From Candidatus Woesearchaeota archaeon (GTDB lineage Archaea > Nanobdellota > Nanobdellia > SCGC-AAA011-G17 > JACPIM01), in the NCBI GenBank assembly GCA_043817645.1, contig JBDRGP010000024.1:412-64411 (forward strand): DNA of 64,000 nucleotides. The letters run 5' to 3'. Both the position numbers and the translations under genes were made by a program. How positions within the stretch are numbered: the first letter of the stretch is position 1; every line of letters starts with the position of its first letter. This document shows, piece after piece, positions 1,757 through 47,603 of the stretch. Below the pieces are notes generated by a model. It was not told where the DNA came from, made no database searches, and was given only the letters and a program-made list of their open reading frames with translations.

Positions 1757-2225
1757 GCAATATTTAGAAAGAGCTGAAAATGAGTTAAGAGTTTCAACTA
1801 TCCTTAAAAACCTGTCTGAGTCTAATTCGGAGGAAAAAGCAAATCTGGGCGGGAGAAAGGAAGATACTTTTTACAGCTCGGTTATCTCTCATGCTTATTA
1901 TGCTATATTTTATTCTGCTAAGGCGATACTTTTGAGTAAGAATATTGAAACGGATGCTCCAGAAGTGCACAAAAAGACTTTGGAGGAGTTTAAGAAACAT
2001 TTTGTGGATTCTGGCATTTTGGATTTGGAATTATTAAAGATATATAATGAGATGATTGTGAGAGCAGATGAGCTTCTTGGACTTTATCAGATTGAGAAAA
2101 GTAAAAGAGGGCGATTTGTCTATAAGACTATTCCTCAGGCAAATGTTGAGCCGGCTGAGGAGTCTATTGCTCATGCTAAAAAGTTTGTTAGCCATATTAA
2201 ACAGATTATCGAGGGAGAGGTATGA
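1740..2225 (+). CDS. HEPN domain protein (candidate toxin of the MNT-HEPN pair)
   Basis: HEPN-like helical protein with HAYYAIFYSAKAILL and a conserved R/H region. Its stop overlaps the arcC start (ATGA). Confidence 0.65.
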   Translation: MDISVKQYLERAENELRVSTILKNLSESNSEEKANLGGRKEDTFYSSVISHAYYAIFYSAKAILLSKNIETDAPEVHKKTLEEFKKHFVDSGILDLELLKIYNEMIVRADELLGLYQIEKSKRGRFVYKTIPQANVEPAEESIAHAKKFVSHIKQIIEGEV

Positions 2226-3145
2226 CAATAATAATAGCTTTGGGTGGCAACGTTTTAACTCCAAATGGAAAAAATACCTATAAGGAGTTGCTTTGGAATA
2301 TTAAAAAAGTATCCAAGGTATTGGCGAAATTAGTTAAGAATAACAAATTAGTTATTGTTACTGGTTCTGGACCACAAATAGGCGCATTAATACTACAAAA
2401 TGAGCTGGCAAAAAATAGGGTGCCTCCTATGCCTTTAGATGTTCTTGATGCTGAATTGGAAGGGGAGCTAGGCTATTTATTAGAAGAGCAGTTGAGTAAT
2501 CAATTGAGAGAGAATAAAATTAAGAGACCTATTGCGACTTTAGTTACACAAGTTTTAGTGAATAAAAAAGATAAGGCTTTTAGAAATCCTACAAAACCTA
2601 TAGGTCCTTTTTATACAAAAAAAGAGGCTGAGAAATTAAGAAAAAAAGGATATAAAATCATTAATGATGCTGGAAGAGGTTTTAGAAGAGTAGTTGCATC
2701 ACCTAAACCTGTTAAAGTTATTGAAGCTGAGACTGTTAAGAAATTAGTTAGTATTGGGACTGTTGTTATTACTTGCGGTGGTGGCGGGATTCCTGTTGTT
2801 ACTTCCAGAGGTAAATTGAAAGGTGTTGAGGGTGTTATTGATAAGGATAGAGCTTCTGCTTGTTTAGGTAAGAGTGTTAAGGCATCTACTTTGCTTGTTT
2901 TGACTGGTGTTGATTTTGTTTATTTGAATTATGGCAAGAAGAATCAGAAAAAAATCAAAAAGATGAGTGTGAAAGAGGCTAAGGGATATTTAGAAGAAGG
3001 GCAGTTTGGTGTTGGGAGTATGAAGCCTAAGATTGAGGCTGCGGTTGATTTTTTATTGAGTGGGGGTAAGAGAGTGGTTATTACTAGACCTAGATATGCT
3101 GTGAAGGCTTTGGACGGAAAGTATGGGACTTTGATTGTTAAGTAA
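2222..3145 (+). CDS. arcC: carbamate kinase
   Basis: IIALGGN, TGSGPQIG, PLDVLDAE, NPTKPIGPFY, GRGFRRVVASPKP and ITCGGGGIPVV are all hallmark carbamate kinase (amino-acid kinase family) motifs. Confidence 0.8.
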   Translation: MTIIIALGGNVLTPNGKNTYKELLWNIKKVSKVLAKLVKNNKLVIVTGSGPQIGALILQNELAKNRVPPMPLDVLDAELEGELGYLLEEQLSNQLRENKIKRPIATLVTQVLVNKKDKAFRNPTKPIGPFYTKKEAEKLRKKGYKIINDAGRGFRRVVASPKPVKVIEAETVKKLVSIGTVVITCGGGGIPVVTSRGKLKGVEGVIDKDRASACLGKSVKASTLLVLTGVDFVYLNYGKKNQKKIKKMSVKEAKGYLEEGQFGVGSMKPKIEAAVDFLLSGGKRVVITRPRYAVKALDGKYGTLIVK

Positions 3146-3487
3146 TCAGGGTTTGGATTCTATGATTAATTTATGGTCTTCTGGGTGGATATGCGCTTCC
3201 TCTCCGTCTTTTAGGTTTAGATAATCTGCTATTTTTTTGGGTATTCTTACTGCTAGCGAATTCCCTGTTTTTGTGATTTTAGTTGTTGCGCTCAGTCCCC
3301 ATAACCCTTTTTTTTTGGCTATTTCTTCTATTTTTTTGGTGGTATCGGAGTCAGTAAAGGTCTCCTTACATTTAGTACAGATTTCTGCTGGAAATTCACC
3401 TAGGTATACCCCAAACATATACTCTTTTACTTTCCCCTTTTTTAGGGTACCATTTTCACATATTGGACATCTTGTCATTTTTACCAC
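3146..3487 (-). CDS. Zn-ribbon (CPxC…CxxC) + SpoVT/AbrB-like DNA-binding protein, candidate antitoxin
   Basis: N-terminal CPICENG…CTKC zinc ribbon (YgiT/MqsA-like). C-terminal GNSLAVRIPKKIADYLNLK swapped-hairpin AbrB/MazE-like motif. Paralogs lie at 25518 and 34013. Its start overlaps the stop of an upstream DUF4258-like frame. Confidence 0.6.
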   Translation of the reverse strand: MVKMTRCPICENGTLKKGKVKEYMFGVYLGEFPAEICTKCKETFTDSDTTKKIEEIAKKKGLWGLSATTKITKTGNSLAVRIPKKIADYLNLKDGEEAHIHPEDHKLIIESKP

Positions 3488-3681
3488 TTTGGTTTTACAG
3501 TGATTATAAAATATTCATTATTTATCTTTTTGGTTACTACAGTGAAATAACTATAATGATGTAGTATTTTATTAGGTTTCTGTAATTCCTTTGCTCCTTT
3601 CTTGATTGCTTCCTCAACTTCGTTTACTGATATTCCTCTTTCGATCATTTGCGCTCTAGCCTGTTTGCTGTATTTTGGCAG
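3481..3681 (-). pseudogene. DUF4258-family toxin-like gene lacking a canonical start codon (CTG where the paralog has GTG)
   Basis: Frame encodes LPKYSKQARAQMIERGISVNEVEEAIKKGAKELQKPNKILHHYSYFTVVTKKINNEYFIITVKPKW*, homologous to the 34338..34541 product. The upstream TATA and AGGTGA-6nt spacing are conserved, but the aligned initiator is CTG. An in-frame ATG is only present at 3648. Confidence 0.45.
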
Positions 3682-3710
3682 ATGTAATCACCTGTAATTA
3701 CAGTACTTAC

Positions 3711-3725
3711 TTTAGTATATAAATG
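3711..3725 (-). promoter_or_regulatory. BRE/TATA promoter (minus strand) of the DUF4258/ZnR-AbrB module, followed by an AGGTGA ribosome-binding site at ~3691-3696
   Basis: catttatatactaaa on the minus strand. The architecture is homologous to 34573..34592. Confidence 0.4.
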
Positions 3726-3855: not shown

Positions 3856-4083
3856 ATGGTAAAATTAGTTTCTTTGTCAAATGATGTGTATGACCTATTG
3901 AAAAGTATGAAAAAAGAAAATGAATCTTTTTCACAGTTACTTAGGAGAAGAATTACTCTGAGAAAGAAAGTGAGCTTACTGGATTTGGCAGGTTCTATTA
4001 AGGATGGTAGTTTTGATAAGGCGATGGTGGCGGTTCTCTCTAAAAGAAATGTGAGATCAAAAGAGATATTGAGGTTTGATTAA
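3856..4083 (+). CDS. vapB: VapB-like antitoxin (small DNA-binding protein upstream of PIN gene)
   Basis: 75-aa basic protein. Overlaps the PIN-domain gene by 8 nt in typical TA arrangement. Confidence 0.5.
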   Translation: MVKLVSLSNDVYDLLKSMKKENESFSQLLRRRITLRKKVSLLDLAGSIKDGSFDKAMVAVLSKRNVRSKEILRFD

Positions 4084-4480
4084 ATTGTATCTATTAGATT
4101 CTGATGTTATTGTTGGTTTCTTGAGGGGTAATACTGGAGCGGTAGAAAAAATAAAGAATTTAGAGGAAAAAAATGCTTCTTTGTGTATCTCTTCAATATC
4201 GATTCATGAATTATTAGAAGGGGCTTATTTATCTTTAAAACCTAAAGAGAATTTGGAAGCGATTAGGGATTTTGTTAATAGGGTGGTTGTTTTGGATTTT
4301 ACTTTTGACTGTGCTAAGATCTCTGGTAAGATATCAGCAGATTTAACTAGGAAGGGTGAAAAGATTGGAGATATTGATGTCTTGTTGTCTTCTATTGCTA
4401 TATGTAATGGTCTTATTTTAGTTACTAGGAATACGAGGCATTTTAGTAAGATTAATATATTAAAATTGCTAGCTTGGTAA
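4076..4480 (+). CDS. vapC: PIN-domain ribonuclease toxin VapC
   Basis: N-terminal LYLLDSDVIVGFL (first PIN Asp) with conserved acidic residues further on (…ILVTRNTRHF). 134 aa. Confidence 0.7.
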   Translation: MIKLYLLDSDVIVGFLRGNTGAVEKIKNLEEKNASLCISSISIHELLEGAYLSLKPKENLEAIRDFVNRVVVLDFTFDCAKISGKISADLTRKGEKIGDIDVLLSSIAICNGLILVTRNTRHFSKINILKLLAW

Positions 4481-4483
4481 TAG

Positions 4484-5870
4484 GTACGTGTTTTGCTAAC
4501 CGAAAATAGAATATACTAGTTATAATTATTAATTTCATGGGGGGAGGAGGAAAGAGGTGCAGATACCCCAAGAATTAAAGGAACTCAGTAAAAGAGACTT
4601 GATAAGGATAATTCTTGATTTGCAGAAGAGGCTTGCAATATATGAGAATGCACATATTCCTTCTTCCAAGAAGAGATTTCCTGAGAGAAAGAAACCATCC
4701 AACAGCAAGATAGGTGCTCCAAAAGGACATCCGGGTACGACAAGAGAAAGGAAAGAGCCAACGGAGAGGATAGATGTAGAAGCAGTTCAGTGTAAGCATT
4801 GCCGTGATTTGCTGGATAAGCCATTTAAGCAAGAGAAGAAGGTAATAGAAGAGATACCAGACCCCCAACCAGTGAGAGTTATTGAATTTCTAATCGATCA
4901 CTATAAATGTCCTTCATGTAATGAAATAACAGTAGCTTCTCACCCAAGCTTACCTAAGGAAGGCACTTTAGGTAATAACTTACAGGCACAAATAGCTTTG
5001 ATGAAATACGAAGATAGACTGCCTCACAGAAAGATAGTACAAACACTAAACAGACAACATGATTTGGATTTAGCACCCAGTACAATACTAGAGGTGACAA
5101 ATAGGGTTGCCAAAAGAGTTGAACCTGAATACAATAAGATAAAACAAACAATAAGAAAGTCTCCTAATGTTTACTCAGATGAAACAGGACACAAAGTACA
5201 AGGGAAGAACTTTTGGTTATGGGGGATTGCAATTAAGATAGCAGTATTATTTGCTATAAGGAAGAAAAGAAGCAAAGAGGTTTTAGAGGAATTGCTTGGA
5301 GATAATTATAAGGGAATAATCTCATGTGATGGTTGGACTACATATTCCAAGTATTCGGATAACATTCAGAGATGTTGGGCGCATATACTGAGAGAAGCAG
5401 AATATTTAGCAGAACAACATGAATCTGCCAAGTTATTTTATCAGGAACTTAGAGAATTATATAACCTGGTAGACAGGGTTACAGAGCAAGATTCTCTAGA
5501 AGCAAGAAAGAGATTATACTTAAAGTGCATTGCTCAAATGGATAGATTAGTTGGAAGGATGGAAGCATATAAGGAATTACGTAAATTTGCAGTGAAGCTG
5601 GAGAATGGCAAGGTACATTTCTTTACTAGGGTTTTGTATCCTTTTGTAGAGGCTACTAATAACATTGCTGAGAGATCATTGAGGGAACCAATTGTACAGA
5701 GAAAGATTATCGGAACCCTAAGGAACGAGAAAGGTATCAGAATAACAGAAGTATTGCTTAGTGTGCTAATGACGTGGAGGATGCGAGGATTAAATACTTA
5801 TGGAGGATGCGAGGATTAAATACTTATGATGAGCTTAGAAGAGCCTTAAGCTCCTAAGCAAAACACGTAC
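4484..5870. mobile_element. IS66-family (ISBst12-like, single-ORF) insertion sequence with 14-bp perfect terminal inverted repeats and 8-bp target-site duplication GGTAATAG
   Basis: Left IR GTACGTGTTTTGCT (4484-4497). Right IR AGCAAAACACGTAC (5857-5870). Flanking direct repeats ggtaatag at 4476-4483 and 5871-5878. An 8-bp TSD is characteristic of IS66. Confidence 0.75.
4557..5819 (+). CDS. IS66-family transposase (TnpC-like)
   Basis: N-terminal leucine zipper. CxxC…CxxC zinc finger (CKHCRD…CPSCN). DDE region SDETGHKV, CDGWTTY, CWAHILRE and TNNIAERSLRE are IS66 signature motifs. Confidence 0.8.
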   Translation: MQIPQELKELSKRDLIRIILDLQKRLAIYENAHIPSSKKRFPERKKPSNSKIGAPKGHPGTTRERKEPTERIDVEAVQCKHCRDLLDKPFKQEKKVIEEIPDPQPVRVIEFLIDHYKCPSCNEITVASHPSLPKEGTLGNNLQAQIALMKYEDRLPHRKIVQTLNRQHDLDLAPSTILEVTNRVAKRVEPEYNKIKQTIRKSPNVYSDETGHKVQGKNFWLWGIAIKIAVLFAIRKKRSKEVLEELLGDNYKGIISCDGWTTYSKYSDNIQRCWAHILREAEYLAEQHESAKLFYQELRELYNLVDRVTEQDSLEARKRLYLKCIAQMDRLVGRMEAYKELRKFAVKLENGKVHFFTRVLYPFVEATNNIAERSLREPIVQRKIIGTLRNEKGIRITEVLLSVLMTWRMRGLNTYGGCED

Positions 5871-5919
5871 GGTAATAGTAAATATTTTTAAAGGTAGAAT
5901 TAACTAATTCTGTATATAC

Positions 5920-6036
5920 GGGAACGTAGTTTAACCCGGCTAGAATGAGTGGCTCCAGATATAAGGGTAAACCCTTATCAACCCAAGATAATCCAGGAGA
6001 GACCACTAGATCCAGGTTCAAATCCTGGCGTTCCCA
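5920..6036 (+). tRNA. tRNA-Trp (anticodon CCA) with a ~43-nt intron at the canonical 37/38 position
   Basis: 7-bp acceptor stem GGGAACG/CGTTCCC. T-arm CCAGG-TTCAAAT-CCTGG. Discriminator A followed by TTTT. Anticodon stem AGTGG/CCACT with loop CTCCAG[intron]A. Hand-folded. Confidence 0.6.
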
Positions 6037-25330: not shown

Positions 25331-25517
25331 TTTAAAACAAGGTATTTAGGGTTTAAAAAACAAAAAGTTTATATAGTCTAATTTACTACATTATTGTAGT
25401 CTTGGTGATAGTATGGTTTATTACACCCAAATAGAACCGACAGATCATTATCTCGAAGATCATTCAAGGAATGTTCCATGTTATTAATGCCAAAAAACTA
25501 TAAGGAGTGAAATAAAA

Positions 25518-25832
25518 ATGAGATGTCCAGAATGTGATTCAAATTTGAGGAAGGTGAAAGTCAAAGTACATGGAGCTGAGAGCAGAGTGATTAGTTATCA
25601 GTGTCCAAAATGCGATTATTTTGAATTCGAACCAATCTCTTCTGGAAAGGTGATTAAAGAGCTAAGAGAAACACCGTTGAAAATAAGGCAGAAAATAATA
25701 AAACTTTCTCAGGACAGGTTAGGTATGTATATTAATAAAGATGTGGCTAGAAGTCTAAACCTTAAGGGTGGAGAAGAGGTTTATGTATCTGTCCCTGATA
25801 AAAAACATCTTGTAGTTGATATCGCTAATTAA
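25518..25832 (+). CDS. Zn-ribbon + SpoVT/AbrB-like protein (orphan paralog of the DUF4258-associated antitoxins)
   Basis: CPECDS…CPKCD zinc ribbon and a C-terminal GMYINKDVARSLNLKGGEEV AbrB-like motif. Confidence 0.5.
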   Translation: MRCPECDSNLRKVKVKVHGAESRVISYQCPKCDYFEFEPISSGKVIKELRETPLKIRQKIIKLSQDRLGMYINKDVARSLNLKGGEEVYVSVPDKKHLVVDIAN

Positions 25833-25873: not shown

Positions 25874-26137
25874 TTATTCCATATTCTCAAATAGTTTTTT
25901 AGTGTCGTGGATTGAGTCTCCTATGATCTCTGAGGCCTTTCCTAAAGGGATTTTCTTTTGTTTATGGAGGTGATGGGCTATTGATATTCTTAGGTGTTTA
26001 TTGTTGTTTAAAAGGCTTCTAATAGCGTCTCTTAGGAATTCTGATAGGGAATCATAGTGTCCTATATGTGTGACCGCGTCTAATTTTAGCTTTAGATCAT
26101 TTGGAACTGTGAAACTTAGGGTGTTTGATTTTGCCAT
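25874..26137 (-). CDS. ribbon-helix-helix (CopG-like) DNA-binding protein
   Basis: N-terminal LSFTVPNDLKLKLDAVTHIGHYDSLSEFLRDAIRSLL RHH pattern. Confidence 0.4.
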   Translation of the reverse strand: MAKSNTLSFTVPNDLKLKLDAVTHIGHYDSLSEFLRDAIRSLLNNNKHLRISIAHHLHKQKKIPLGKASEIIGDSIHDTKKLFENME

Positions 26138-30200: not shown

Positions 30201-30473
30201 ATGGTGATGAAAATGCAAGAATTGGAACACTCTCCAACACTCAACACAGTAATCATGGTAGAAGAAACTCTAAAATGTATGGATGAAAGTGTTATTAGTG
30301 TTGCTGAACTCAAACGGAGGCTTCCAAGACAGGTTAATCATAACACTCTTAAAATTATTCTCGAATACCTTGAACTCAGTAATAAGATTGTTGTTACAAT
30401 AAGGGGTATTACATGGATACACAACCCTAATCCCAATCTACAAAAAGCACTTGCAAGAGGACTTGAATTATGA
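30201..30473 (+). CDS. small winged-helix protein, candidate antitoxin partner of the downstream RelE-like gene
   Basis: Paralog of 22501..22770 (LKIILEYLELSNKI…GITWIHN). Overlaps the downstream gene by 4 nt. Confidence 0.45.
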   Translation: MVMKMQELEHSPTLNTVIMVEETLKCMDESVISVAELKRRLPRQVNHNTLKIILEYLELSNKIVVTIRGITWIHNPNPNLQKALARGLEL

Positions 30474-30823
30474 AAATAATACGGATAAAGTTGTCTCCAG
30501 AGGCAGAAGAAGTGTATGAGTATCTTAACAAAGAAGCTCCGAATTCAAAAACTGAGCGCATGATTCTCAAGGCAATAAACCAGAAAGTTGAGTTGATTAA
30601 ATTAAATCCTCATTATGGCGACTCTGTTGGCAAAAAATTATTTCCAGAAGAATACAAAAAGAAATATGGAATTACAAATCTTTTTCGTGTTGAGCTTCCT
30701 GCGTTCTGGAGAATGTTATATACATTAACAGGTGAAGAGAGTGAGGTAGAAATAATTGCGTTCGTTCTTGACGTCATCGATCACAAAGAGTATGACAAAA
30801 AATTTAGGTATAAAGAAAAATAA
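30470..30823 (+). CDS. RelE/ParE-superfamily toxin-like protein
   Basis: 117 aa with NLFRVELPAFWRMLYTL…EVEIIAFVLDVIDHKEYDKKF (RelE-like beta-sheet core + C-terminal basic/aromatic region). Confidence 0.45.
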   Translation: MKIIRIKLSPEAEEVYEYLNKEAPNSKTERMILKAINQKVELIKLNPHYGDSVGKKLFPEEYKKKYGITNLFRVELPAFWRMLYTLTGEESEVEIIAFVLDVIDHKEYDKKFRYKEK

Positions 30824-34012: not shown

Positions 34013-34336
34013 TTAAACTTCAATTAGGATTTCTTTGTTGCTTTTTGGGATTAATTTAACTATCTCTTCTTTTTTTAAATCTACGAACTTTGCTATCTCT
34101 TTTGGTATTCTAATTGCCAAGCTATTTCCAACCATTGCTACTTTTGTTTTTTTAGCCATCCCAAATAAACCTAACTCTTTAGATTTTTTTTGAATTCTTT
34201 CTGCAGAAATTTCGTCATAAAAAACTTCATTACATTTGGTACACACTAAAGCAGGAAATTTGCCTAAAGAGACCCCTAATTCTTTATGTTCAACTTCCTT
34301 TTTTTTCAATTCTCCATTACATGTGATACATTTCAT
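34013..34336 (-). CDS. Zn-ribbon + SpoVT/AbrB-like antitoxin-like protein
   Basis: CITCNG…CTKCNE zinc ribbon with a C-terminal GNSLAIRIPKEIAKFVDLK AbrB motif. ATG at 34336 lies 1 nt after the toxin stop (TAAAATG). The ORF track extends it to 34372. Confidence 0.6.
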   Translation of the reverse strand: MKCITCNGELKKKEVEHKELGVSLGKFPALVCTKCNEVFYDEISAERIQKKSKELGLFGMAKKTKVAMVGNSLAIRIPKEIAKFVDLKKEEIVKLIPKSNKEILIEV

Positions 34337-34337
34337 T

Positions 34338-34541
34338 TTAATCCTCCAGATAAACTGTGATGATAAATACACTTGAATCTTTTTTCGAAAATACTACTTC
34401 TATGCCAAAAGCTCTTGCGTGCCATTTTTCTGTATTTTTTTCTTTCCATTTCATACCCTTTGTGATAACGGATTTTACTTCGTCTTTTTCTATCCCTAGT
34501 CCATCCATCTTTTCCAGGGCATGTTTTTTAAATATAAACAC
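34338..34541 (-). CDS. DUF4258-family toxin-like protein
   Basis: GTG start 6 nt after AGGTGA. FKKHALEKMDGLGIEKDEVKSVITKG…VFIITVYLED matches DUF4258 (…KHA.ERM.ERGIS..EV…vITVY). Confidence 0.55.
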   Translation of the reverse strand: MFIFKKHALEKMDGLGIEKDEVKSVITKGMKWKEKNTEKWHARAFGIEVVFSKKDSSVFIITVYLED

Positions 34542-34572
34542 TAGTATTCACCTGTAATTATTGGTATATCTA

Positions 34573-34592
34573 ATGATATATAAAGTTTTCGG
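34573..34592 (-). promoter_or_regulatory. BRE/TATA promoter (minus strand ccgaAAACTTTATATAtcat) of the DUF4258/ZnR-AbrB operon
   Basis: Homologous to the 3711..3725 element. Followed by an AGGTGA ribosome-binding site. Confidence 0.45.
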
Positions 34593-45767: not shown

Positions 45768-47603
45768 TTGGGCGATATGGCTAAAATAAAAAAGGGGGTG
45801 GAAAAAGGCACTCCTATGGATACTGAATTAGCAGAGATTGATAAGAGATTAGCTAGGCTTAGTGGAAAAGAGGAACCCGAAGTTTCGAGTTTTGAGGAAA
45901 AGAAGAAAACTAAGACCTTTAAGAAAAAAATAGAAGATAAAAAAAACAAGGTAGTTGGAACAAGGACGAAGTTAAAGCCTAAAAAGGTTTTAAAGAAAGT
46001 TCGGTCTTTAGACTTTGAATTAGCTGATATTGATAGGAGATTAGCTGTGCTTGATGGAAGAGAGGAACCTGAAGTTTCGAGTTTTGAGGAAAAGAAGAAA
46101 ACTAAGACTTTTAAGAAAAAAATAGAAGATAAAAAAAGTAAGGTGATTGGGACGAAAGTGAAGTTAAAGCCTGAGCTATTGAAAGTTAAAGCCGGGCAAA
46201 AAGATTTGTTGAAAGAGCCTAAAAAGGTTTTAAAGAAAGTTAGGTCTTTACCTAAAGAAAAATTTACTTCTTTGGATAGGGAAAAGAAAGAGGATATTTC
46301 CTTTAAGGATGAGATTAGGACTAAAAAGGAAGTTTTAAAGAAAGATGTGGCTACTAGTCTAAAAAAGAAAAGGGAAGTTTCTATTCCAAAAAAGAAAAAA
46401 ATATCTAAGAAGAGTTTTTTAGGGTTTAAGAAAAAAAGTGATAAAGCTTCTACTCTTAAGTCTCTTTCTTTAAGTGAAAAAAAGAAAGATTTGTTGAAAA
46501 AGAAGATTCCAAAGAAAAAAACTTCTGTTGTGAGTTCTGGAATGCTCAAAAAGAAAATGGAATCTAAGTTGGGCAGAGATATTTCTAAACCTGTTGAGAT
46601 AGGAGAAGAAAAAGCTGAAGAGGAAAGTGGTAAATCAAAAACACTTCTAAAAAAAGTTAAGGATAAAAAATCAAAATTACGTTTTCCTTTGGAGAAGAAA
46701 AAAGAAGAGGGTCCTACAGAGAAAGTTTCTAAAAAAGAAGAACCTAAGGGAGTAGAGGGGAAGGAAGAAAAACTAGTAAAAAAAACTGAAGAAAACACCC
46801 AAGAGGAAAAAGATGAAAAGAAGATTGGTAAAAAACCTTTAAAAAAATCTTCTGATTTAAAGATTACTACCTTTTTTGATAAATTAGTTGATGATGTTGA
46901 AAAGAGAGGCGCTGTGGGACTATCAGAGATAGCTGAGACTTATAAAATAGATAAAAAAACAGCGCAAGAATGGGCTGAGATATTGAAGGATAATGATCTT
47001 GTTGATTTTAATATTCCTCCTTTTGGTGAGCCAGAACTTAGGAAGAAGCGTTTAAAGTTAGAAAAGGGTGAGAAGGGAGAAAAGGTAGAAGATAAAGAGA
47101 AGACAAAAAAGGAAAAACCTAAGAAGAAATTAATTAAAAAATTTCTTTTAGGAGGTAGCAAAAAATATGTTGTAATGGGGATATTGGGTTTAGTTGTGAT
47201 TATCTCCATTGCTAGTTTTTTTATATTTTCGGGGCGAAGTGGAGAAAGGACTTTTGCGGTTCCTTTTATTGAAGGAACTCAAGAAGAAGAACAAGTGAGA
47301 GAGATAATAGATAAAGAGGATGTTTTATTGGCATTTTCTGGAAATGGATCGTATGATTGTAGAAGCGAAGATGGAAGTACTCGATATCTTATTAAGAACG
47401 TGTTTATAAAAATAGAAGAGTTGGATGGTTCATCAAAGGTAGTGATAAAAAATGATAAGATATATACTTTTAATGTTAATACTGGGTTATGGGTTGAGTC
47501 TGAATTAAGAGAGGGAATTGCTGTTCCTGGGTCCGGAGTTTATCCTAAAACTGTATTAGAATGTCAAGGAGAGGAGATAGATGAGAGCGAATTTGATACC
47601 TAA
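45768..47603 (+). CDS. Lys-rich repeat protein with HTH-like segment, single TM and C-terminal extracytoplasmic domain (pilus-locus specific, function unknown)
   Basis: ~470 aa K/E-rich low-complexity region containing a ~190-200-bp internal tandem duplication (45820-46010 vs 46020-46205). Then AVGLSEIAETYKIDKKTAQEWAEIL, the TM segment YVVMGILGLVVIISIASFFIF, and a ~115-aa C-terminal domain. Confidence 0.5.
   Translation: MGDMAKIKKGVEKGTPMDTELAEIDKRLARLSGKEEPEVSSFEEKKKTKTFKKKIEDKKNKVVGTRTKLKPKKVLKKVRSLDFELADIDRRLAVLDGREEPEVSSFEEKKKTKTFKKKIEDKKSKVIGTKVKLKPELLKVKAGQKDLLKEPKKVLKKVRSLPKEKFTSLDREKKEDISFKDEIRTKKEVLKKDVATSLKKKREVSIPKKKKISKKSFLGFKKKSDKASTLKSLSLSEKKKDLLKKKIPKKKTSVVSSGMLKKKMESKLGRDISKPVEIGEEKAEEESGKSKTLLKKVKDKKSKLRFPLEKKKEEGPTEKVSKKEEPKGVEGKEEKLVKKTEENTQEEKDEKKIGKKPLKKSSDLKITTFFDKLVDDVEKRGAVGLSEIAETYKIDKKTAQEWAEILKDNDLVDFNIPPFGEPELRKKRLKLEKGEKGEKVEDKEKTKKEKPKKKLIKKFLLGGSKKYVVMGILGLVVIISIASFFIFSGRSGERTFAVPFIEGTQEEEQVREIIDKEDVLLAFSGNGSYDCRSEDGSTRYLIKNVFIKIEELDGSSKVVIKNDKIYTFNVNTGLWVESELREGIAVPGSGVYPKTVLECQGEEIDESEFDT

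Follow-up and report, generated by a model that had tools for sequence, protein, structure and literature searches.

Probable toxin-first toxin-antitoxin operons of DUF4258 and zinc-ribbon/AbrB proteins in a woesearchaeal genome

What is the role of a short operon in which a gene for a small DUF4258-like protein is followed at once by a gene for a protein with an N-terminal zinc ribbon and a C-terminal AbrB fold? The question is raised by positions 34,013 to 34,592 of a 64,000-nt stretch of contig JBDRGP010000024.1 (the window; GC content 34%), which belongs to a Candidatus Woesearchaeota archaeon (assembly GCA_043817645.1). The original prediction, made from the letters of the window, saw in this operon a candidate toxin-antitoxin (TA) family present in two to three copies. 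Profile matches, predicted folds, the pairing of the two genes across approximately 70 genomes and the decay of the toxin gene all support this view. It is probable that the operons are toxin-first type II TA operons, confined within the genomes sampled to DPANN archaea, and the family as a whole is likely to represent a TA module, active or decaying.

Two operons of the same architecture had been proposed, at 3146-3725 (copy 1) and at 34013-34592 (copy 2), and both are there. They lie on the minus strand, and in each of them a TATA box and a ribosome-binding site (RBS) precede a DUF4258 gene, referred to here as the toxin (T1 in copy 1 and T2 in copy 2), and a zinc-ribbon/AbrB gene, referred to as the antitoxin (A1 and A2) (Table 1). 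Only the proposed 1-4-nt overlap of the two genes is absent: in the window they are separated by 1 nt in copy 2 and 2 nt in copy 1, and overlap is common in the relatives only. Hidden Markov model (HMM) searches assigned both operons to the expected families and not to unrelated ones, since the DUF4258 (PF14076), YgiT_finger (TIGR03831) and MazE_antitoxin (PF04014) models all scored above their curated cut-offs of 25, 20.2 and 24.7 bits, respectively. T2 covers positions 1-70 of the 71 in the DUF4258 profile at 30.8 bits, and in A2 the YgiT_finger model matches residues 3-42 (21.4 bits) and the MazE_antitoxin model residues 67-105 (25.8 bits). Public annotation describes these proteins by domain only, as 'DUF4258 domain-containing protein' (the NCBI name for T2) and 'AbrB/MazE/SpoVT family DNA-binding domain-containing protein'; some homologs are called 'YgiT-type zinc finger protein'.

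The pairing of the two genes is not peculiar to the window. A scan of species-representative genomes gave 164 loci with relatives, and 80 of them were fetched and compared; nearly all of these 80 are labeled Woesearchaeota, Nanoarchaeota, Nanoarchaeia or 'uncultured Methanosarcinales', and one is labeled Aenigmatarchaeota. A DUF4258-like open reading frame (ORF) lies immediately upstream of the antitoxin gene in 72 of the 80 loci. The remaining eight consist of three loci at a contig end (one still with the C-terminus of a toxin), two with frameshifted toxin remnants and three without a toxin. When operon conservation, a check suggested along with the original prediction, was scored in the testable loci, the toxin was directly upstream in 73 of 77, which is far beyond chance. 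The toxins split into two subfamilies, T1 and T2, and the antitoxins split likewise into A1 and A2, with 39 T2/A2 loci, 30 T1/A1 loci and no mixed locus. Several metagenome-assembled genomes hold both T1-type and T2-type modules. Between the two copies in the window, the identity is 44% for A1 and A2 and 33% for T1 and T2, whereas the window copies are up to 79-85% identical to their orthologs in other genomes. Because mutual identity is low and ortholog identity high, co-segregation is perfect and the operator motifs (described below) are distinct, sequence comparison indicates that copies 1 and 2 are old paralogs in separate subfamilies. The idea of an actively diversifying module, which had been drawn from the divergence of the copies within 35 kb, is therefore not upheld. 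With a more distant third copy, treated below, three paralogous families, each having a putative operator of its own, are represented in the window by a single member apiece.

The predicted fold of the toxin bears on how it might act. The AlphaFold2 (AF2) model of T2, based on a 24-sequence alignment, has a predicted local distance difference test (pLDDT) score of 96.1 and consists of a strand, two successive helices and four strands. In this model Lys6-His7 sits in helix 6-15, and almost all T1 and T2 members keep the Lys-His motif. The best matches of the model in a Foldseek search of the PDB are toxins of the RelE/YoeB/HP0894/YafQ/ParE type (TMq 0.6-0.7), and the CdiA-CT tRNase 5I4Q occurs lower down the list. 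MqsR (PF15723) was not matched in Pfam at E-values up to 1 and is not in the top 50 fold matches. DUF4258 (Ntox49) has been placed by profile and topology in the BECR fold's colicin-like branch, whose characterized members are mostly tRNases and whose active-site His follows a semi-conserved Lys in the pre-alpha helix (bioRxiv 10.64898/2026.08.28.747851).

The same matches can be read differently, namely that the system is a genuine TA module whose toxin cleaves mRNA in a ribosome-dependent way, as an interferase of the RelE/YoeB type, and is not a colicin-like tRNase. RelE, YoeB, YafQ and HP0894 are the top structural matches, the short N-terminal strand ahead of the first helix in the T2 model is as in the RelE-like topology, and Gerdes 2025 (PMC11980606) puts DUF4258 in the RelE/ParE superfamily. 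However, the placement cited above is colicin-like, T2 is without the C-terminal extension that bears the RelE/YoeB catalytic residues, the Lys-His pair stands at the start of the pre-alpha helix, which is the colicin-like active-site position, and the list of fold matches includes the CdiA-CT tRNase. An interferase of this type is possible, but we consider it unlikely.

The antitoxin is built from two recognizable parts. In the AF2 model of A2 (37-sequence alignment, pLDDT 90.7), residues 1-60 superpose on the N-domain of MqsA, both free and MqsR-bound (3GA8, 3GN5 and 3HI2; TMt 0.62-0.70), and the final 45 residues on MazE (1UB4_C, root-mean-square deviation 1.4 Å), AbrB-type VapB and SpoVT; the zinc-finger structure 8YOZ is also a fold match. 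The four Cys residues of the ribbon (C3, C6, C32 and C35 in A2) occupy columns that show no or almost no variation. Scores against the model of full-length MqsA (TIGR03830) are only 17.6 and 15.2 bits, with a cut-off of 61.8, and just the N-terminal part is covered, because the helix-turn-helix domain of MqsA is replaced here by MazE/AbrB. The antitoxins are thus not members of the MqsA family, with which they share the N-domain alone; as modeled, they are chimeras of a module of the MqsA toxin-binding type and a module of the MazE/AbrB DNA-binding type. An exhaustive profile search returned 602 antitoxin representatives at 50% identity (E-values up to 1e-3); among the best 150, approximately 62 cover both domains, and many other representatives are zinc-ribbon-only proteins of 60-100 residues, or fragments.

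At five loci (Table 1), the gene in the toxin position upstream of a zinc-ribbon/AbrB gene belongs to a divergent DUF4258-like subfamily ('ISKHAKEKMD...YRIKTVF') that reaches no more than 22-26 bits against T1/T2. In two of these loci, L077 and L078, there are two toxin-like ORFs approximately 0.5-0.8 kb apart, and tandem modules are possible.

The regions upstream of the toxin, when aligned on the start codon, show in succession TTTAWATA, two to three short palindromic repeats, GGTGA(T) and the start 4-7 nt on. Motifs were counted with at most one mismatch per 40-nt operator window, and windows 110 nt upstream served as controls. A GATATC-like repeat occurs 1.67 times per operator window in T2 loci and 0.11 times in the controls; it is present at least twice in 24 of 36 loci, and of 26 neighboring pairs 25 have a spacing of exactly 10 nt. 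The counterpart in T1 loci, GTAMTTAC, is found 1.46 times per operator window against 0.0 in the controls, with a spacing of 9-10 nt. The subfamily-specific repeats are thus enriched at least 15-fold over control windows. When the motifs were exchanged as a cross-check, the GATATC-like repeat was found 0.14 times per operator window in T1 loci and GTAMTTAC 0.08 times in T2 loci, both close to background, and no locus had two copies. The element of the third family, ACTACA-N4-TGTAGT, differs from both. These putative operators change with the antitoxin subfamily and lie at a position from which an archaeal repressor would prevent initiation, as autoregulation by the AbrB domain predicts, and such autoregulation may take place.

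The two genes also differ in how they start. In the 64 scorable loci, the toxin start at a fixed distance from GGTGA is ATG in 6, GTG in 19, TTG in 19, ATT in 14, CTG in 4 and ATA/ATC in 2, and 62 of 65 loci have ATG as the antitoxin start. Relatives most often show a 4-nt ATGA overlap of toxin stop and antitoxin start (32 of 65 loci). In 13 loci, including copy 1, no ATG, GTG or TTG lies between the upstream in-frame stop and the Lys-His motif, and in these the sequence Tyr-Ser-Lys-His-Ala-Leu-Glu-Lys is kept through synonymous changes (TAC/TAT, AGC/AGT, AAG/AAA and CAT/CAC). This pattern suggests that weak starts may act as a translational throttle on the toxin. As a result of the start-codon bias, gene callers may miss or truncate many of these toxins owing to their ATT, CTG or TTG starts.

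It could be objected that the non-ATG starts are an illusion of annotation, in which case translation would begin at the first internal ATG, the product would be truncated and many of the toxin genes would be dead. In fact, the gene callers of JGI and ENA start the copy 1 toxin at the internal ATG and obtain a truncated form of 55 residues, and initiation at ATT and CTG is rare in characterized archaea. In addition, 29 clusters (90% identity) of the T2 toxin stand against at least 155 of the A2 antitoxin family, two numbers from searches that are not directly comparable and to whose difference missed toxin gene calls may contribute. On the other hand, the codon at the fixed GGTGA spacing is always a cognate or near-cognate start, and the stretch before the first ATG is the one whose amino acids are kept by synonymous changes. 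In five of the 13 loci (L014, L015, L020, L024 and L036), the next ATG is approximately 30 codons in, and a start there would delete both helices. In copy 1, where an in-frame TGA stands two codons upstream of the CTG, the NCBI pipeline independently picks the CTG start (MFH1592291.1, 66 residues); this form scores 31.2 bits against DUF4258 over positions 1-69 of 71, and the 55-residue internal-ATG form scores 23.3 bits, which is under the cut-off. Initiation at internal ATG codons is therefore an improbable account of these genes.

The three modules of the window differ in their state. Copy 2 is the only one that, judged from its sequence, looks intact and functional. In T1, Lys-Gln replaces the Lys-His pair, although the histidine is present in the 27 other usable T1 sequences (28 loci including the window). 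Because Gln here replaces His at the predicted colicin-like BECR active-site position, T1 is probably catalytically dead; A1 is intact. A carbamate kinase gene lies in convergent orientation to the T1/A1 module in the window (2222-3145) and again in locus L080 (3397-4287), and the two kinases are 53% identical. Neighboring genes are mostly unconserved among the related loci, and this is the only clear conserved neighborhood that was found; it hints at vertical inheritance of the T1/A1 copy in part of the lineage.

The third copy had been described as an orphan zinc-ribbon/AbrB gene at 25518. It is a real gene and a distant homolog of A1 and A2, but it is not a clean orphan, as a remnant of a partner gene that opens with 24 codons lies upstream. 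Alignment with the DNA of relatives shows that an internal, frameshifting deletion of 118 nt removed the middle of this partner; intact partners of the same type, 69-70 residues in length, are present in loci L081 and L082. The antitoxin A3 is only 26% identical to A2, and its PF04014 score of 16.4 bits is below the cut-off, as is its NCBIfam AbrB match. However, the A1/A2 family HMM matches A3 over positions 1-107 (E=1.7e-6, search within the window), and hhalign aligns the A3 family with A1/A2 over 102 columns (96.5% probability, E=7.6e-10). Taken at the level of sequence profiles, A3 is a distant full-length homolog of A1/A2. A profile search of the PDB with the family-3 antitoxin gave chance zinc-finger matches only.

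The A3 family comprises at least 770 clusters (90% identity) without Pfam annotation. Of 72 related metagenome loci, 64 have the whole partner gene or a part of it directly upstream. In approximately one quarter of family-3 loci, the partner is truncated, deleted in frame or wholly lost and the antitoxin is kept; independent in-frame deletions and N- or C-terminal truncations beside an intact antitoxin are found in L138 (2346-2492), L087/L088 (2319-2441) and L091 (1286-1429). The family-3 partner has no meaningful match in Pfam. Its alignment with T1/T2 by hhalign is colinear over 52 columns at only 13% probability (P=0.002), which is suggestive of a remote DUF4258 homolog.

A housekeeping role for A3 beside the gene for ribosomal protein S2 was considered and rejected, since the relatives in L081 and L082 have other neighbors and their own upstream partner. 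S2 is near the module in 2 of the 80 family-1/2 loci (L016 and L047), both of which have A1/A2-type antitoxins and not relatives of the gene at 25518. Two further observations concern the surroundings of this family. A lone 87-residue gene (25874-26137, minus strand) is convergent with A3; it has a weak UPF0175 match (18.8 bits, below cut-off) and is antitoxin-like, and no partner gene is visible. In L082/L083 (3378-6074), a replication factor C-like gene with intein and LAGLIDADG domains adjoins the family-3 module.

The asymmetry of decay, in which the toxin is broken and the antitoxin kept (copies 1 and 3 and the quarter of family-3 loci mentioned above), supports the TA interpretation, and we also count the variable genomic context in its favor. 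Nevertheless, several points weigh against it. Gerdes 2025 (PMC11980606) lists DUF4258 as a BECR-fold type II toxin with activity 'Unknown' and no references. A PDB sequence search with T2 gave no match at E-values up to 10, and the E-values of its fold matches are only approximately 1e-3 to 1e-2. The zinc ribbon is taken as the toxin-contacting domain by analogy with MqsA. In this genome of 34% GC, the operator-like repeats are short palindromes rich in AT, and only one clear copy is present in some loci. Because related loci share ancestry, independent events are fewer than the start-codon counts suggest, and the ATT group looks like one clade. Finally, a PADLOC-DB scan of five proteins matched no model and scans of viral contigs with both antitoxin profiles found no relatives, so that neither a defense role nor a mobile-element role is indicated.

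These points leave room for a different account, in which the pair consists of a transcription factor and a small co-regulator that is not toxic, the DUF4258 protein having lost its RNase activity in this lineage and serving only as a co-repressor or sensor. The 'Unknown' entry for DUF4258, the loss of the conserved His in the window T1, the chromosomal location of the modules with none on viral contigs or in PADLOC, and the strong conservation of the family-3 antitoxin (67-82% identity in the best 120 clusters), which is more like that of a housekeeping regulator, would all suit it. However, Lys-His and the BECR fold are kept in nearly all T1/T2 members, decay strikes the small gene and spares the regulator, which is the classic pattern of a costly toxin, the weak starts are specific to the first gene, and several non-mixing paralogs per genome in variable neighborhoods are typical of TA modules. 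We judge a non-toxic co-regulator to be quite improbable. A viral or defense-island origin is unsupported, as the PADLOC and viral-contig scans were empty.

Based on the results presented above, the TA operon would work as follows. The toxin would be a minimal BECR-fold RNase of the DUF4258 family (approximately 67 residues), in which the predicted catalytic His, preceded by Lys, stands where the first helix begins. The N-terminal four-Cys zinc ribbon of the antitoxin, homologous to the toxin-binding N-domain of MqsA, would bind and block this toxin. The C-terminal MazE/AbrB domain would dimerize and bind the palindromic repeats of 10-bp period between the TATA box and the RBS, and antitoxin on these repeats would repress the operon. 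The ratio of toxin to antitoxin would be set at translation by the weak toxin start and the antitoxin ATG, often coupled by the ATGA overlap. Of the window copies, copy 2 would retain all of these parts, the copy 1 toxin would probably be inactive, and the copy 3 toxin appears to have been lost by deletion.

Each part of this arrangement has a counterpart in a known system. Like MqsR/MqsA (YgiU/YgiT of E. coli), the operon encodes the toxin first, the toxin has a BECR/RelE-like fold, and the antitoxin is fully structured, with an N-terminal four-Cys zinc domain and a separate C-terminal DNA-binding domain. Unlike in MqsR/MqsA, the latter is a MazE/AbrB swapped hairpin in place of the XRE helix-turn-helix, the toxin is DUF4258 and not MqsR, and a TATA-box promoter precedes the operon in an archaeal host. 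DUF4258 (PF14076/Ntox49) toxins with YgiT-type or MqsA-like partners belong to the same toxin family, and zinc-ribbon-only relatives of the antitoxin exist; however, the partner described here adds an AbrB domain, and the gene order catalogued for the family overall is antitoxin then toxin (PMC11980606), the reverse of that observed here. With MazE/MazF and AbrB-type VapB/VapC, the system shares the fold and Pfam family (PF04014) of the DNA-binding domain of the antitoxin, and autoregulation through a palindromic operator is expected. MazE and VapB, however, carry the AbrB domain at the N-terminus and hold the toxin with a disordered C-terminal tail, whereas here the AbrB domain is C-terminal and the folded zinc ribbon is the presumed toxin binder; the MazF and PIN toxins are unrelated to the DUF4258 toxin. 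RelBE and YefM-YoeB offer the closest solved toxin folds, but there is no similarity at the sequence level, the toxin here is shorter and without the C-terminal catalytic segment, and their antitoxins are unrelated and encoded first in the operon.

Other reports on DUF4258 include 17 recorded DUF4258-MqsA fusions (PMC11980606), and further surveys give a HicB partner in Synechocystis and occurrence on haloarchaeal viruses. Literature searches, in which some results were judged by title, found no description of a zinc-ribbon plus AbrB antitoxin. The original prediction had called this fusion uncommon, which holds for the literature but not for the databases, where two antitoxin families alone account for at least 155 and at least 770 clusters. 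All the parts are known; what is new is the combination of a DUF4258 toxin with an MqsA-N plus AbrB antitoxin, the toxin-first order, the weak toxin starts and the subfamily-specific operators. A bolder and more tentative proposal, to which we give somewhat less than even weight, is that DPANN archaea hold at least three non-cross-reacting TA families in which the MqsA-type zinc ribbon has been rewired to AbrB and toxin dosage is hard-wired by near-cognate starts, including ATT and CTG, at a fixed GGTGA spacing. If this is true, these antitoxins would have an architecture not described before and an operator code of their own, and the loci would form a natural comparative data set for routine archaeal ATT/CTG initiation as a throttle on a toxic gene.

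These findings overturn nothing in current understanding. To our knowledge, DUF4258 is among the last sizeable BECR toxin families without experimental data, and the compact archaeal version, with its toxin of 67 residues, structured antitoxin of 107 residues and defined promoter, would be a tractable test case. The MqsA zinc-ribbon module appears to be swappable onto another DNA-binding domain, which supports the view that antitoxins are built from interchangeable toxin-binding and DNA-binding parts. In a toxin-first operon the antitoxin must nevertheless stay in excess, and the start-codon bias suggests a translational answer to this problem. The presence within 35 kb of three paralogous modules that differ in their degree of decay may also be viewed as a snapshot of TA turnover in genome-reduced DPANN symbionts.

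Table 1. Coordinates of the features of the three modules in the window and of the divergent DUF4258-like genes in related loci
Feature	Position	Strand	Basis
Copy 2, TATA box TTTATATA, archaeal promoter	34577-34584	-	Read from sequence; same box at same RBS distance in 36 related T2-type loci
Copy 2, operator-like repeats TATATC / GATATAC / TAATTAC / TGAATAC, 10-nt period, TATA box-to-start region	34544-34580	-	Motif enrichment in T2 loci; presumed antitoxin binding
Copy 2, RBS AGGTGA, 6 nt 5' of toxin GTG	34548-34553	-	GGTGA at 4-7 nt from start kept in nearly all related loci
Copy 2, putative toxin T2, DUF4258, 67 residues, GTG start, Lys6-His7 in first helix	34338-34541	-	PF14076 30.8 bits; AF2 pLDDT 96.1
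Copy 2, RBS GGAGG of A2	34343-34347	-	
Copy 2, putative antitoxin A2, 107 residues, ATG start, N-terminal four-Cys zinc ribbon and C-terminal MazE/AbrB swapped hairpin	34013-34336	-	TIGR03831; PF04014; AF2 pLDDT 90.7
Copy 1, TATA box TTTATATA, promoter	3716-3723	-	Read from sequence
Copy 1, operator-like repeats GTAAGTAC / GTAATTAC / GTGATTAC, 9-10-nt period	3684-3710	-	Motif enrichment in T1 loci
Copy 1, RBS AGGTGA, overlapped by third repeat	3688-3693	-	
Copy 1, putative toxin T1, DUF4258, 66 residues from CTG, Lys-Gln for Lys-His	3481-3681	-	PF14076 31.2 bits
Copy 1, putative antitoxin A1, 110 residues, zinc ribbon and MazE/AbrB, ATG 2 nt past toxin stop	3146-3478	-	TIGR03831 25.9 bits; PF04014 29.7 bits
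Copy 3, TATA box, promoter	25368-25375	+	Kept in loci L084, L085 and L089
Copy 3, inverted repeat ACTACA-N4-TGTAGT	25385-25400	+	Kept in loci L084, L085 and L089
Copy 3, GGTGA	25404-25408	+	
Copy 3, toxin-like partner remnant: first 24 codons at 25413-25487, C-terminal 'FHVINAKKL*' in another frame at 25474-25503	25413-25503	+	DNA alignment
Copy 3, putative antitoxin A3, 104 residues, zinc ribbon and AbrB-like, intact	25518-25832	+	Family HMM; hhalign
Divergent DUF4258-like subfamily	L049 2755-2979; L064 1900-2166; L073 2265-2486; L077 2752-2964; L078 486-698		

Elsewhere in the window, a weak match to the toxin HMM at 47328-47429 (E=0.05) lies inside a 611-residue ORF on the opposite strand and was taken as chance. 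At 30201-30823 (plus strand), two ORFs of 90 and 117 residues overlap by 4 nt in a TA-like layout; they have no Pfam match. Copy 1 is adjoined by a VapB/VapC (PIN) pair (3856-4083 and 4076-4480), and an IS66-family transposase gene (4557-5819) and a tRNA gene of 117 nt (5920-6036) are located nearby. The tRNA gene probably contains an intron, because it is detected by Rfam (51 bits) and missed by ARAGORN. Taken together, the genes in 3856-6036 look like a small mobile or TA islet beside a tRNA gene.

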